Assembly (NCBI RefSeq): GCF_009931435.1
Contig: NZ_CP043414.1
DNA from: Escherichia coli
Lineage (GTDB): Bacteria; Pseudomonadota; Gammaproteobacteria; Enterobacterales; Enterobacteriaceae
Reading direction: 5' to 3' (one strand)
Length of the DNA: 64,000 nt
A program made the position numbers and the translations under genes. Shown here one piece after another: positions 23,782 through 27,810 of this stretch. Positions within the stretch are counted from its first letter, which is position 1, and every line of letters begins with the position of its first letter. Under the pieces are notes generated by a model. The model did not search any database, was not told the DNA's origin, and saw only the letters and a list, made by a program, of their open reading frames with translations.

Positions 23782-26700
23782 TTAGTCAAACGGAGGTGGG
23801 GCCAATACTTCACGATTACCATTGTGCCCCTGTTCGCTGACAATCCCCTGCGCTTCCATCTGTTCGATAATCCGCGCCGCACGGTTATAACCAATGCGGA
23901 ACTGACGCTGTACGCCTGAAATTGACGCTTTGCGTTTTTCAGTGACAAACTGCACTGCCTGATCGAACAACGGATCCAATTCTTCAGCGCCATCGAAACC
24001 ACCCGCACCACCTTCGCTTTCGCTGTCGGAGGTGATGCCGTCAACATACTGTGGGCGACCACGCGCTTTCCAGTCCTGCACCACGGCATGAACTTCCTGA
24101 TCGCGAACAAAAGCACCATGAACACGTACCGGCAACGTGGAGTTCGGCCCAGAGTAAAGCATATCCCCCATACCCAGCAGTGATTCCGCGCCAGCCTGAT
24201 CAAGAATGGTACGTGAGTCAATCTTACTGGATACGGTAAAGGCGATACGGGTCGGAATATTCGCTTTAATCAGACCAGTAATAACATCAACCGATGGACG
24301 CTGAGTTGCCAGTACGAGGTGGATACCTGCAGCACGGGCTTTTTGCGCCAGACGTGCTATCAGCTCTTCCACTTTTTTACCTACCGTCATCATCAGGTCG
24401 GCAAATTCGTCCACCAACACCACAATGTACGGTTCCTTTTTCAGCACCGGATGCTGGGCATCCATACTGTCACCCGGCTTCCAGTACGGGTCTGGAATCG
24501 GACGCATCATGCGATCGGCTTCAGCAATTTTTTCGTTATAACCCGCCAGATTACGCACACCCAGTGCAGACATCAGTTTATAACGACGCTCCATCTCGTT
24601 AACACACCAGCGCAGCGCGTTGGCGGCATCTTTCATATCGGTAACGACTTCCGTTAACAGGTGCGGAATGCCTTCATAAACCGAAAGCTCCAGCATTTTC
24701 GGGTCGATCATGATGAAACGCACATCTTCTGGCTGTGCTTTATAAAGCATGCTCAGGATCATCGCGTTCACACCGACAGATTTACCGGAACCGGTAGTCC
24801 CCGCAACCAACAAGTGCGGCATTTTCGCCAGATCGGCAACCACCGGCTCACCGGCGATATCTTTACCCAGCACCACGGTTAATGGCGACGGATTATCGCG
24901 GAATTTGGCGTTATCCAAAACTTCGCGCAGATAAACGGTTTGTCGTTTTTTATTCGGTAACTCCAGACCTACATAAGGTTTGCCAGGAATAACTTCAACG
25001 ACACGCACCGCCACCGTCGAAAGTGAACGGGCAAGGTCACGTGACAAGTTAGAAATACGCGCCGCTTTTACGCCCGGTGCCAGGTTCAATTCAAAGCGAG
25101 TGATAACCGGCCCCGGAGAATAATTGACGACATCGGCTTTAATACGGAAATCAGCCAGACGCGCTTCCACCAGACGCGCCATTTGTTCAAGCGCAAAGGT
25201 ATCTACCGGCTCCACTTCGCTCGGCGGCGGTGTCAGCAAATCCAGAGAAGGCAGCGGCGTCGTAGGTTTATGCAACGGACGGCTGTCGCCATTACGCATT
25301 AACAGCGGATGAAGCAGGGTATCCTGCGGCTGCGGCGCAACTGGCTGTTGCGGCTGCTGATATTGCTGCTGTGGTGCAACCGGCTGTTGTGGCTGCTGAT
25401 ACTGCGGCTGTGGTGCAACCGGCTGTTGCGGCTGCTGATATTGCGGCTGCTGTGCAACCGGTTGTTGCGGCTGCTGATATTGTTGCTGCGGCGCAACTGG
25501 TTGTTGCGGCTGCTGATATTGTTGCTGCGGTGCTACCGGTTGTTGCGGCTGCTGTACAGGTTCAACAATTGGCGTAAACAGCGGTTCGTGTGGACCATCA
25601 TCCAGCAACGCTTTCATTGGCGAAAATTCAAAATCATCCAGCGAGAACGGATTCGCCCCAGCCGGTTGTTCGCCGGAATAACGTTGTTGTTGAGTTTGAG
25701 CAAACTGACGAGCCAGTTCTGCCTCTGCCGCAGCATCTGCATCTTCTGTGTTCACGGGCACATCATGTTGATACTGTTCGCCATAGCGTTGCTGCTGCGT
25801 TTGGGCGAACTGACGTGCCAGTTCATCCTGCTGCATCGCATCGATTTCATCATCGTTGTACTGATCGCCAGAATCGTACTGATTGCGCTGGGCTTCACGG
25901 GCTTTTTCTTCTGCTGCACGCTGTGAGGGCAGCTTAATGCCATATGACGCCAGTTCACGACGAGTTGGCACGCGGATACGTTTCGGTCGTGGCAACTGCG
26001 GGCCAATCCCCTCTTTGACCTGCGGACGCGGTCCACCGCTATTTGCCAGACTGAAGACTGGTGCGGCAACGGTTGCGGCAGCCCCCGTCGCCAGTGTCGC
26101 TTTTTTCACGCCAGATGCCAGAGGGGAAACAGCGGCAGCGGCTTCCACTGGAGGTACTGCTGCAACAGAAGGTGCTTTAAGCGAAGATTTGATCGGTTCT
26201 GGTTCTTTAACCGGTTCAGGAATCGGTTGATACCAGGCCGCAAGTTGTTCACGTTCACGGGCACGCTTCTCTTCCACTTCTTCAAAATAGTAAAGCGGCG
26301 GACGCGCGGGTTTTGTCTCTTCTACAATGGGTTCAGGCTCCACAACAGGCTGCTGTTCAACGGGTTGCGGCTGTTGGTACAACGGCTCCTGAGCGGCTGG
26401 CTGCTGATAAGTTTGCTCCGTCTGGTATGTAGACTGTGGAGCAAAAGTGGATTGCTGCTCTTCGGCTTGCCAGGCGTTACCTGCCACCGGTTGTTCTGGC
26501 GCAGGGGCGTAATACGGCTGTTGCGCAGACTGTTCCGGCGCAGGAGCGTAGTAAGGTTGTTGCACAGGCTGTTCAGCTGCAGGCGCATAATACGGCTGCT
26601 GTGGCTGTACAGGTTGTTGCAGCGGCTCATTATATTGCACTGCAGGCTGCGCATATTGTGACTGCTGTGGGTAACCTTCCGGTGCAGGTGCAATAACCGG

Positions 26701-27810
26701 TTCTCCCGTTTGCGGCCCCGGTACAGGCTGCCAGGCTACTGTAGGTTGCGTAGGTGGAACATCAACAGAGGCAACTGGCGGCGTCTGAGTCACAGGTTCA
26801 ACCGGTGCAGCCCAGCTTTGTGTCGCCGTGGTAGCAGCAGCTGCTACAGCAACAGGTTCGGTAATTGGCGCACCGTTTAATAATGGATCGTATTCGTCAT
26901 ATTCTGGCTGCGTTGCACGATTGCCCGAAAAGAGGACGTCGTCAGGGTCGGCAGCCACACCGCGTGCAGTGTAGGTAATCTCTTCTTCATCATCCATCCG
27001 CTTACCGGAGAACAACGCAGCATCTGTTTGCCGCCCCATCGGATTAATGAATTTTTCCGCCAGACGTTTACGACGTGCTAGCGCGCCGCGAAGAATACGG
27101 GCACGGCGCGATTCATGCTGTTTGCCGTGATTTTCATCTTCATATTCTTCGTCGTCTTCATACTCATCTTCATCGACCCAGGTATCATCGCGACGGGTAC
27201 GATTACTGGCGAAGGTGAGAATGTTTAAAATCCAGCCGCCGAGTTTTTCAGCAATGGTCACCCATGACCAACCGGTGAACAGCGTCAGGCCCGCTGCCCA
27301 AACGCAGAGCAGCGCAATAGTTCCCCCGCTACTGTGTAGCAGTGGTTGTAGCGTAGTGCTTAGTAAGCTGCCGATGACGCCACCGGAGGCAAAATACCAG
27401 ATATCGTCAGCGTTGATTGCCGCCAGACCACAAGAGGTAAGGATTAGCGCCAAAACGCCAATGATGCGTAGCGAAACGGCAAAATAATCAATGTATTCGT
27501 CACTGGACTGATGACGCCAGGCAAACCAACAACCGCCGACGATAATGACGGGAATGGTGTAAGCCATCACGCCAAAAATAAAGAACAGCGTATCTGCCAG
27601 CCACGCACCGGGCATTCCACCTAAATTATGGATAGGCTCATGCCAGGCCGTTTGCGACCAGCTGGGGTCCGAAGGGTTAAAGCTTAGTAAGGCAGCCATC
27701 AACCAGACGGCAAACAGGACAATAAGGATCAGCAACGCCTCCAGAAGTCGGCGGCCGCTACTTAACTTTGTCAATGTGACTTCTTTGTCTTCAGTGTATT
27801 CCTGGCTCAA
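23782..27810 (-). CDS. ftsK: DNA translocase FtsK (with Pro/Gln-rich repeat linker)
   Basis: 1342-aa ORF: N-terminal membrane domain, long PQ-rich linker, C-terminal motor (Walker A GTTGSGKS) and gamma domain. Longer than the 1329 aa I recall for K-12, consistent with linker-repeat polymorphism. Confidence 0.97.
25321..25560 (-). repeat. In-frame tandem repeats of about 39 bp (about 6 copies) encoding [10 protein letters not shown](Q/P)QY units in the FtsK linker
   Basis: Direct reading of the sequence (ctgttgcggctgctgatattgctgctgtggtgcaaccgg... repeated) and the translated protein. Confidence 0.8.

Follow-up and report, generated by a model that had tools for sequence, protein, structure and literature searches.

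The repeats of the Escherichia coli FtsK linker: probably an Escherichia-only minisatellite and an ancient conserved pair of predicted helices

We find that two sets of repeats in the linker of the Escherichia coli DNA translocase FtsK, previously described together, are in all probability two things of different nature: a minisatellite found only in Escherichia (the PYYAPA array) and an ancient, conserved pair of predicted helices (the ELARQ pair). Because the two differ in this way, the earlier interpretation of a low-complexity linker evolving by duplication was only partly right. It suits the PYYAPA array, which is lineage-restricted, polymorphic in copy number and subject to local tandem duplication and deletion, and it fails for the ELARQ pair, which has diverged only synonymously, is conserved across many species and keeps a fixed length. 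That the FtsK linker is PQ-rich, bears repeats and varies in length is textbook knowledge.

The ftsK gene, its linker and its repeat families

Within the window, by which we mean the whole 64,000-nucleotide stretch of E. coli DNA analysed (contig NZ_CP043414.1 of assembly GCF_009931435.1), ftsK runs along the minus strand at positions 23782..27810 and encodes, from a TTG start, a protein of 1342 aa; the identical frame and start are annotated in E. coli RefSeq genomes. The product matches NCBIfam model NF007615 (PRK10263, 'DNA translocase FtsK') over its full length (residues 1-1342, 3074 bits against an equivalog cut-off of 1566), and its Pfam domains follow the order FtsK_4TM (PF13491, 20-191), FtsK_alpha (PF17854, 853-953), FtsK_SpoIIIE (PF01580, 961-1174) and FtsK_gamma (PF09397, 1277-1337), the 4TM-linker-alpha-beta-gamma arrangement of the gammaproteobacterial long-linker type. 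The lrp-ftsK-lolA neighbourhood is present, judged by the ORFs of the window and matching E. coli RefSeq loci, and this order is also kept around distant homologues. The linker, approximately aa 192-852, carries no Pfam domain, its only NCBIfam match being the whole-protein FtsK model, and a PDB sequence search returned nothing for these residues and only the FtsK motor 2IUS. Overlapping ORFs (for example, 26227-26661 on the plus strand, 144 aa, and 26322-26693 on the minus strand, 123 aa) were rejected as unsupported Leu/Arg-rich read-throughs of the CAG/CCG-rich repeat.

Published summaries describe the E. coli linker (FtsKL) as about 650 aa long, unstructured and PQ-rich, with length and composition that vary among species (PMC5357621 and PMC2800217, summarising Bigot et al. 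2004 and Dubarry et al. 2010). It is reported to be dispensable for growth (PMC3140498), and reviews state, at the level of regions and from two-hybrid assays, that parts of it contact FtsZ, FtsQ, FtsL and FtsI (PMC5357621, PMC3140498). The repeats considered here lie in this same region of the same protein; whereas that literature treats the linker in bulk, we resolve them as a separate array and helix pair. In secondary accounts of the primary linker papers we found neither the PYYAPA array singled out as a polymorphic minisatellite in its own right nor the two paired LARQFAxxQQxRY helices recognized as a conserved motif, and the primary papers may describe either. A Caulobacter FzlA-FtsK paper and a divisome cryo-EM paper, consulted for linker motifs, both deal with other parts of FtsK.

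The linker is strongly P/Q-rich, and self-comparison of the protein returned many weak cross-matches between PQ segments. The preliminary description had claimed at least three independent repeat families here. We recovered three, namely the PYYAPA array, the ELARQ pair and a major array of six 13-residue units (25321..25554, minus strand, aa 753-830; Tandem Repeats Finder period 39, 5.9 copies, 89% matches), together with a fourth, small repeat at the start of the linker, in which seven (GAAGAT)-like hexanucleotides (27133..27174, minus strand; Tandem Repeats Finder period 6, 7 copies) encode a 14-residue acidic stretch that appears at offset 6 in protein self-comparison. The independence of the families is not contradicted, because the PYYAPA unit and the major unit are no more alike than composition predicts: a common origin of these units, which share a 13-aa period, was considered and rejected (best cyclic alignment P = 0.18-0.84 against codon or residue shuffles, or 0.2-0.8 in round figures).

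The major array is the repeat measured by the MLVA typing locus CVN001, the primers of which (sequences from PMC8143711) flank it with exact single matches at 25223-25242 and 25649-25667 and delimit an amplicon of 445 bp (25223..25667). The PYYAPA array lies ~0.8-0.9 kb outside this amplicon, and the ELARQ pair is also outside it.

The PYYAPA array and its length alleles

The PYYAPA array consists of three in-frame units of 39 nt (13 aa) on the minus strand at 26485..26601 (aa 404-442), placed head to tail, constant in length and similar beyond chance. They are unit A (26563-26601), a B/C hybrid unit (26524-26562) and unit D (26485-26523), which begin at aa 404, 417 and 430 with the three exact occurrences of QQPYYAPA in FtsK. 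The three peptides (a stretch of 26 residues and a further 13) share the consensus QQPYYAPA(A/P)EQ(P/S)(V/A), just as first noticed, and the interval originally given for them, 26470-26640, encloses the array with margins of 15-40 nt. Tandem Repeats Finder reports it at 26492-26598 (period 39, 2.7 copies, 77% matches, score 130, no indels), and a DNA repeat search likewise returned a family of three copies spaced 39 nt apart.

The preliminary description called this family degenerate. That is apt for the DNA, where units are 69-82% identical and those of the window differ from one another at 8-11 of 39 positions, and it is inapt for the peptide, which is constrained (pooled pS 0.77, pN 0.06 and pN/pS ~0.08 between units, from ~9 synonymous sites per comparison). 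The peptide is under purifying selection despite the divergence of the DNA.

Arrays of this kind were found only in Escherichia, with 2-5 units in five Escherichia species. Citrobacter has a single QYYAP or SYYAP proto-unit, the array is absent in all other Enterobacteriaceae examined, including Salmonella arizonae and Enterobacter, and Leclercia carries an unrelated array at the same position. Being limited to Escherichia, variable in copy number and rich in P, Q and A, the PYYAPA array belongs with low-complexity, lineage-restricted repeats, subject to the caveat that its units are old (pS ~0.77) and its peptide constrained.

Copy number varies among E. coli strains. We estimated frequencies from 40 evenly spaced rows of the 5426 complete genomes, which form a biased collection, using positions 26350-26750 as a query. 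A 401-nt span, equivalent to three units, was present in 13 of the 40 rows, a 362-nt span (two units) in another 13, and a span of 438-440 nt (four units) in 7; the remaining 7 rows gave split matches, two of which were checked and proved to carry four units. E. coli carries two, three or four units in roughly equal shares. Annotated E. coli ftsK genes are 3990, 4029, 4068, 4107 or 4146 nt long, all in steps of 39 nt; indels measure either 39 or 78 nt without exception, and the reading frame is intact in every allele seen.

Unit barcodes give some indication of how these alleles arose. The window has the allele A-[B/C hybrid]-D, in which the middle unit is identical to B over positions 1-24 and, over positions 25-39, to the C type known from strains KTa008 and MS1685. 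This three-unit allele is best explained by a single 39-nt deletion, through unequal recombination, from a four-unit A-B-C-D array. Strain M15 has A-B-[C/D], FDAARGOS_1268 has A-[B/D] and the 1329-aa allele is A-D; these different hybrids imply that array length has changed at least four times. We infer the direction of change, deletion versus duplication, from the hybrid units and the outgroups and not from a strain phylogeny. One-to-one orthology of units between E. coli and E. albertii or E. whittamii was rejected (distances of 5-13 of 39 positions, no clear pairing), and this lack of pairing suggests that the arrays turned over between species.

VNTRs in ftsK with a 39-bp unit serve as neutral typing markers in both E. 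coli (CVN001, Lindstedt 2007 scheme, PMC8143711) and Salmonella Enteritidis (SENTR2, PMC2430564). The PYYAPA array resembles these in gene, in its in-frame 39-nt unit and in copy-number polymorphism among strains, but differs from CVN001 in having more diverged units (69-82% versus ~89% identity) and in being restricted to Escherichia. A looser likeness may be drawn, by analogy only, to minisatellites within other disordered envelope or division proteins of bacteria, such as the tolA repeat SENTR1, with a 45-bp unit (PMC2430564): there too the units are in frame (a multiple of 3 nt), the spacer is of low complexity and whole-unit length variation is tolerated, although gene and unit are different.

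Conservation and predicted structure of the ELARQ pair

The duplicated segment, correctly located in the preliminary description at about 25680-25860, comprises two copies of a LARQFAxxQQxRY motif on the minus strand. The first motif (25783..25854) has a 14-residue core at aa 663-676 (25783-25824) within a predicted helix spanning aa 653-676, with an acidic lead-in; the second (25678..25746) has its core at aa 698-711 (25678-25719) within a predicted helix spanning aa 689-711. The cores are identical at 14 of 14 residues and lie 35 aa (105 nt) apart, and the DNA repeat search recovered the pair over 47 nt at 81% identity. Their DNA differs at 7 of 42 nt, and every difference is synonymous (7 of ~9 synonymous sites, a saturated level, and 0 of ~33 non-synonymous sites), which points to constraint on the protein rather than on the nucleotide sequence.

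Across 59 species of Enterobacteriaceae, drawn from more than 20 genera, both copies retain the pattern L-A-(R)-Q-F-A-x-x-Q-(Q)-x-R-Y. Residues L, A, Q, F, A, Q, R and Y are invariant in copy 1, and the same residues plus the second Q in copy 2. The majority residue accounts for a fraction of 0.87 and 0.93 in the two copies versus 0.43 in the spacer, which varies in both length and sequence. Loci were collected with six peptide patterns, five outside the motif and one (QFAQTQQQ) inside it, so some ascertainment bias attaches to this conservation. Within E. coli, a 301-nt query over the pair matched once, and along all 301 nt, in 29 of 30 sampled genomes, the region is covered to at least 80% in 5424 of 5426 genomes, and it is invariant in length. 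When 1.84 billion representative proteins were searched with a profile, only 76 matches came back, the longer of which are FtsK proteins with one, two or three copies of L-x3-F-x2-QQ-x2-RY. With 8-9 invariant positions, fixed length and divergence that is synonymous only, the pair does not belong with recent, low-complexity duplications.

AlphaFold2, run with the species alignment, predicts two helices (segment residues 59-82 and 95-117, pLDDT ~83-85) joined by a disordered spacer, and the pTM of 0.23 indicates that the segment has no globular fold. Helices predicted by AlphaFold2 in disordered regions can be over-predicted. When placed on a helix, the invariant residues cluster on one face (R = 0.51), as tightly as only 0.8% of equal-sized subsets. 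A conserved island in a disordered context, with predicted helicity and one-sided conservation, is what characterizes short helical linear motifs. Division proteins carry such motifs within their disordered linkers or tails, the conserved peptide at the C-terminus of FtsZ being one example (bioRxiv 10.1101/632075), and the ELARQ motif would resemble them in being a short, conserved, predicted-helical island with variable disordered flanks and its conserved residues on one face. The ELARQ motif and the FtsZ peptide are unrelated in sequence, and the ELARQ motif differs in being internal and duplicated, and in being known here from sequence and prediction.

Alternative readings and proposed roles

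Chance matches arising from the extreme Pro/Gln/Ala composition of the linker could be suspected, given its P/Q-richness, the weak PQ cross-matches and a similarity between PYYAPA and major units no better than composition, but this by-product reading is hardly credible and is refuted by shuffle controls and by the orthologous units that other genomes carry. In 300 codon-shuffled linkers the best 78-nt window at lag 39 reached 39.1 +/- 1.7 matches (maximum 45), and the real linker reaches 58 (z ~11); for the best 47-nt window at lag 105 the shuffled linkers gave 26.8 +/- 1.1 (maximum 31) and the real one 38, and protein window scores of 54-70 (BLOSUM62 12-mer scores of 54-62 between PYYAPA units) exceed a shuffled-linker maximum of 46; PYYAPA units are, moreover, recognizable in other strains and species. 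It is also very improbable that the three-unit array is a collapsed or expanded repeat produced by sequencing or assembly. Many draft assemblies do break within ftsK linker arrays, leaving contig ends there, but a complete genome, that of E. coli O84:H7 Trh52, matches positions 26350-26750 at 100% identity, the 401-nt span recurs in about one third of the sampled complete genomes, and the differences between units are numerous enough for short reads to place them unambiguously. Comparably improbable is the notion that the ELARQ pair owes its conservation to a cis-acting element in the DNA or RNA of ftsK and not to its peptide. Any conserved stretch of DNA that occurs twice might conceivably be such a site, and nothing more specific favours it, but the copies differ in DNA while remaining identical in peptide, and across genera the codons vary where the amino acids are invariant.

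The role of the PYYAPA array invites two further readings. Its units could form a multivalent Pro/Tyr-rich docking array in which copy number tunes avidity, adaptively across E. coli lineages. The peptide is kept despite saturated synonymous divergence, the E. coli core QQPYYA is constant except for a third-position P-to-S change (QQSYY) in three units, with the next P being T in C units, and the array is kept in every Escherichia species examined, each copy-number class being common. We nonetheless consider this unlikely: none of the other Enterobacteriaceae examined has the array, and their FtsK must perform the same task, while the unrelated Leclercia array at the same position argues for a compositional or spacer role. 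Two, three and four units also coexist at similar frequencies, the units have no known partner, and in Salmonella Enteritidis swapping an 84-bp ftsK linker-array indel between two strains left egg-white survival, the only phenotype assayed, unchanged (PMC6137255). Far less probable still is a phase-variable contingency locus that switches FtsK on and off. Intragenic tandem repeats are a classic substrate of phase variation, but the 39-nt unit is a multiple of 3, no frame-shifting repeat change occurs among the alleles seen (CDS 3990-4146 nt), units of 69-82% identity are a poor substrate for rapid slippage, and alleles look lineage-stable, both O157:H7 rows in the sample, for example, having the 362-nt span.

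We retain the reading of the PYYAPA array as a minisatellite. It probably arose within the lineage of Escherichia from one (Q)YYAP proto-unit, of which Citrobacter still has a single copy. Its units later diverged synonymously while the 13-residue peptide was kept, and copy number probably shifts by 13 codons at a time, through slippage or unequal recombination involving adjacent units of only ~75-80% identity, leaving hybrids behind. The array is likely part of the flexible spacer, with composition and peptide nonetheless constrained. Its exact length is probably nearly neutral, as one unit is ~2% of a ~650-aa linker, although a peptide constrained to a pN/pS of 0.08 fits poorly with a purely inert spacer.

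The ELARQ pair probably stems from an ancient duplication of a ~35-aa module, composed of an acidic lead-in and an amphipathic helix ending in RY, both copies of which have probably been kept by purifying selection across Enterobacteriaceae, with weaker forms in one to three copies in more distant FtsK linkers. It looks like an uncharacterized functional motif, most likely a short helical interaction motif in a disordered linker, present twice for bivalent binding; any such binding function is suggested by conservation and predicted structure. Tentatively, and with rather less than even confidence, we propose that the pair (aa 653-676 and 689-711) may act in the FtsK linker of Enterobacterales as a conserved but so far unrecognized module for bivalent docking, whose candidate partner would be a divisome or chromosome-segregation protein, or FtsK itself through self-association.

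As originally written, the observation of repeats in this linker matters little, since FtsK linker repeats are in the textbooks and a 39-bp ftsK VNTR is already a typing marker. What is gained is a second, independent 39-nt length polymorphism in ftsK, with alleles of two, three and four units that are each common and invisible to CVN001 typing, and hybrid units that record separate unequal-recombination events. Knowledge of this polymorphism helps in calling alleles and in explaining assembly breaks, and it lets ftsK lengths of 1329-1381 aa be read as benign. The conserved, duplicated and predicted-helical ELARQ motif is now separated from the low-complexity background, and with 8-9 invariant residues in each of two copies it offers a concrete, mutable target for asking what the non-essential yet conserved part of the linker does. 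If the docking proposal is true, this module could explain in molecular terms how the linker contributes to cell division, a contribution noted long ago but not mapped.

Two repeat families in the FtsK linker

A single long open reading frame (23782-27810, minus strand) encloses the flagged interval and encodes a 1342-aa FtsK, with lrp and lolA as neighbours. From end to end the protein matched the NCBIfam equivalog NF007615, scoring 3074 bits where the cut-off is 1566. The TTG start codon of the gene (27808-27810) falls at the same position as the RefSeq start of orthologous genes. Four Pfam FtsK domains were detected (aa 20-191, 853-953, 961-1174 and 1277-1337), and the Pfam scan found none at aa 192-852, in the linker between membrane domain and motor, for which a PDB sequence search returned no solved structure. 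A PQ-rich FtsK linker of variable length is well known (PMC5357621, PMC2800217). Repeat searches placed its major array, six 13-aa units, at 25321-25554 (minus strand). Additionally, the acidic stretch at the linker start is encoded by a hexanucleotide repeat (period 6, 7 copies, 27133-27174), a fourth small internal repeat.

We show that two further repeats, the PYYAPA array and the ELARQ pair, are both far above chance. By peptide match, the PYYAPA array comprises three 13-aa units, QQPYYAPA(A/P)EQ(P/S)(V/A), at 26485-26601 (minus strand), with QQPYYAPA occurring exactly three times (aa 404, 417 and 430). Tandem Repeats Finder reported 26492-26598 (period 39, 2.7 copies, 77% matches, zero indels), and a DNA repeat search recovered three copies spaced 39 nt, two of them 82% and 69% identical to the one taken as reference. 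The ELARQ pair consists of two identical 14-aa segments on the minus strand, likewise placed by peptide match (copy 1, aa 663-676, 25783-25824; copy 2, aa 698-711, 25678-25719), and appears in DNA as a 47-nt repeat with 81% identity and 105-nt spacing. Against 300 codon-shuffled linkers, we observed 58/78 matches at lag 39 (shuffled 39.1 +/- 1.7, maximum 45) and 38/47 at lag 105 (26.8 +/- 1.1, maximum 31), and protein window scores were 54-70, compared with a maximum of 46 in shuffled linkers. Thus, the preliminary description, which had reported three PYYAPA units and a duplicated 14-residue segment, was correct in content and coordinates.

39-bp VNTRs of ftsK already serve for strain typing, as SENTR2 in Salmonella Enteritidis (PMC2430564) and as the generic MLVA locus CVN001 in E. 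coli, whose primers are published (PMC8143711). These primers match the window exactly at 25649-25667 (minus) and 25223-25242 (plus), delimiting a 445-bp amplicon (25223-25667) that contains only the major array and scores 5 repeats under the published formula, (445-250)/39. In contrast, the PYYAPA array and the ELARQ pair both lie outside the amplicon. Thus, ftsK contains, apart from the major array, a second coding minisatellite of known kind, the PYYAPA array.

Length variation and hybrid units of the PYYAPA array

The PYYAPA minisatellite varies among strains: when a 401-nt query spanning the array was run against 5426 complete E. coli genomes, ftsK was matched in 5425, over differing spans. 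In an evenly spaced sample of 40 match records, 13 spanned 399-401 nt (three units), 13 spanned 362 nt (two units) and seven spanned 438-440 nt (four units); the remaining seven were split matches, two of which were inspected and proved to be four-unit alleles carrying QQSYY or other changes. These frequencies are sample estimates from a collection skewed towards clinical lineages, and not a census. Annotated ftsK lengths among fetched loci were 3990, 4029, 4068, 4107 and 4146 nt, every step being 39, and the major array, read directly in inspected alleles, varies independently between 5, 6 and 7 units. Plasmid records, not chromosomes, carry 8-11 of the E. coli matches to ftsK linker segments.

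Draft Enterobacteriaceae assemblies often terminate within the ftsK linker, adjoining PQ arrays. Among ftsK loci from other genomes, contig right ends fell there in L013, L016, L021, L048 and L076, and left ends in L018, L019, L040, L050, L054-L056, L061, L065, L072 and L081; short-read assemblies are commonly broken by these coding repeats.

PYYAPA units can be distinguished by synonymous 'barcodes', and four-unit alleles read A-B-C-D. The middle unit of the window is identical to B at positions 1-24, including all three B-specific bases, and at positions 25-39 it has exactly the sequence of the C unit in strains KTa008 and MS1685. Thus, the window allele is A-[B/C]-D. Strain M15 carries another three-unit allele, A-B-[C/D], FDAARGOS_1268 carries A-[B/D], and a 1329-aa FtsK allele is A-D, the published length of K-12 FtsK (PMC2800217). 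Such hybrids, joining the 5' part of one unit to the 3' part of the next, are the expected product of in-register unequal recombination or slippage. To account for the nine alleles examined, length must have changed at least four separate times. The window allele probably arose by deletion from four units, given that B and C differ at 9/39 sites and that the hybrid matches B exactly on one side and C exactly on the other; this direction is drawn from the comparison of units.

Across ftsK, the window and E. coli O84:H7 Trh52 (locus L001) differ at 94 positions (2.3%) and by one 39-nt major-array unit, yet over 26350-26750 they are 100% identical. Over 25600-25900 the best complete E. coli genome reaches at most 99.3% identity. 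Together these comparisons hint at a mosaic (recombinant) gene.

Age and constraint of the PYYAPA units

Among the genera compared, the array is confined to Escherichia, with 2-5 units in five species. Citrobacter species have one (Q/S)YYAP at the homologous place, and the unit was not found in Salmonella arizonae, Enterobacter, Yokenella, Trabulsiella or Kosakonia. Where Escherichia has PYYAPA (homologous to 26485-26601), Leclercia sp. 29361 (locus L073) has an unrelated tandem array, QPQ(Y/H)(E/V) (QPQYEQPQHVQPQHVQPQYEQPQYEQPHYEQPQ), which suggests that repeats expanded independently at one linker site in the two genera. Despite their common 13-aa period, PYYAPA and major units were no more similar than composition predicts (P = 0.18-0.84).

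Between PYYAPA units, pooled pS was 0.77, near saturation, and pN 0.06, a ratio of about 0.08 from only about 9 synonymous sites per comparison. Thus, the units are old and their peptide is constrained; the family, initially called degenerate, is more so in its DNA but less so in its protein. The array probably forms part of the flexible PQ-rich tether joining the membrane domain to the motor. A single unit makes up about 2% of the linker (roughly 650 aa), two-, three- and four-unit alleles are all common, and swapping an 84-bp linker-array indel between two Salmonella Enteritidis strains left egg-white survival, the sole phenotype assayed, unchanged (PMC6137255). We therefore infer that copy number is nearly neutral, with composition and peptide constrained.

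The conserved ELARQ pair

Seven nucleotides distinguish the two 14-codon ELARQ cores of the window, none altering an amino acid: of about 9 synonymous sites 7 have changed, and of about 33 non-synonymous sites none has. Scanning one genome per species recovered 80 Enterobacteriaceae ftsK loci, with some ascertainment bias, as one of the six search patterns lay inside the ELARQ motif and five outside; 59 of these, from more than 20 genera, were aligned. Across the 59 species, neither copy varies at L, A, Q, F, A, Q, R and Y; copy 2 has an invariant second Q as well, and the R following L-A is conserved to at least 90% in each copy. Majority-residue fractions were 0.87 and 0.93 for the motifs, 0.43 for the spacer, which also varies in length among species, and 0.32 upstream. 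The region does not vary in length within E. coli: of 30 sampled genomes, 29 gave one full-length match to a 301-nt query, which was covered to at least 80% in 5424/5426 genomes. Two further strongly conserved islands lie within aa 595-745 (25576-26028), one of 37 aa (fraction 0.93, 59 species) and one a 12-aa block (0.88) followed by DDGPxEPLF; neither is covered by an annotated domain.

AlphaFold2 on the 59-sequence alignment predicted two helices (aa 653-676 and 689-711, pLDDT about 83-85), each terminating at the motif RY, with a low-confidence spacer; the pTM of 0.23 indicates no globular fold. A helical wheel groups the invariant residues on one side (R = 0.51, reached by 0.8% of equal-sized subsets), with the variable positions opposite.

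Searching 1.84 billion representative proteins with an ELARQ profile yielded only 76 matches at E-value <=0.001. Those that are longer and more divergent belong to FtsK, with lrp-ftsK-lolA synteny in both contigs checked, and they carry one, two or three L-x3-F-x2-QQ-x2-RY copies spaced about 30-80 aa. Of two distant fragments, P0011 has three modules and P0012 one, so module number has changed in other lineages; in sequence, the lone P0012 module resembles the beginning of copy 1 fused to the tail that follows copy 2.

The papers searched, an incomplete coverage of the literature, yielded no description of a paired helical motif. Reviews describe contacts of several FtsK linker regions with FtsZ, FtsQ, FtsL and FtsI, as well as filamentation of linker mutants (PMC5357621, PMC3140498). 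In their behaviour the ELARQ motifs resemble short helical interaction motifs of disordered regions, and their duplication would provide two binding sites. The view of a low-complexity linker evolving by duplication fits the lineage-specific PYYAPA array, shaped by duplication and deletion, but not the ELARQ pair, which is ancient, selected and not low-complexity. This conserved helix pair is the sole element that could repay experimental follow-up.
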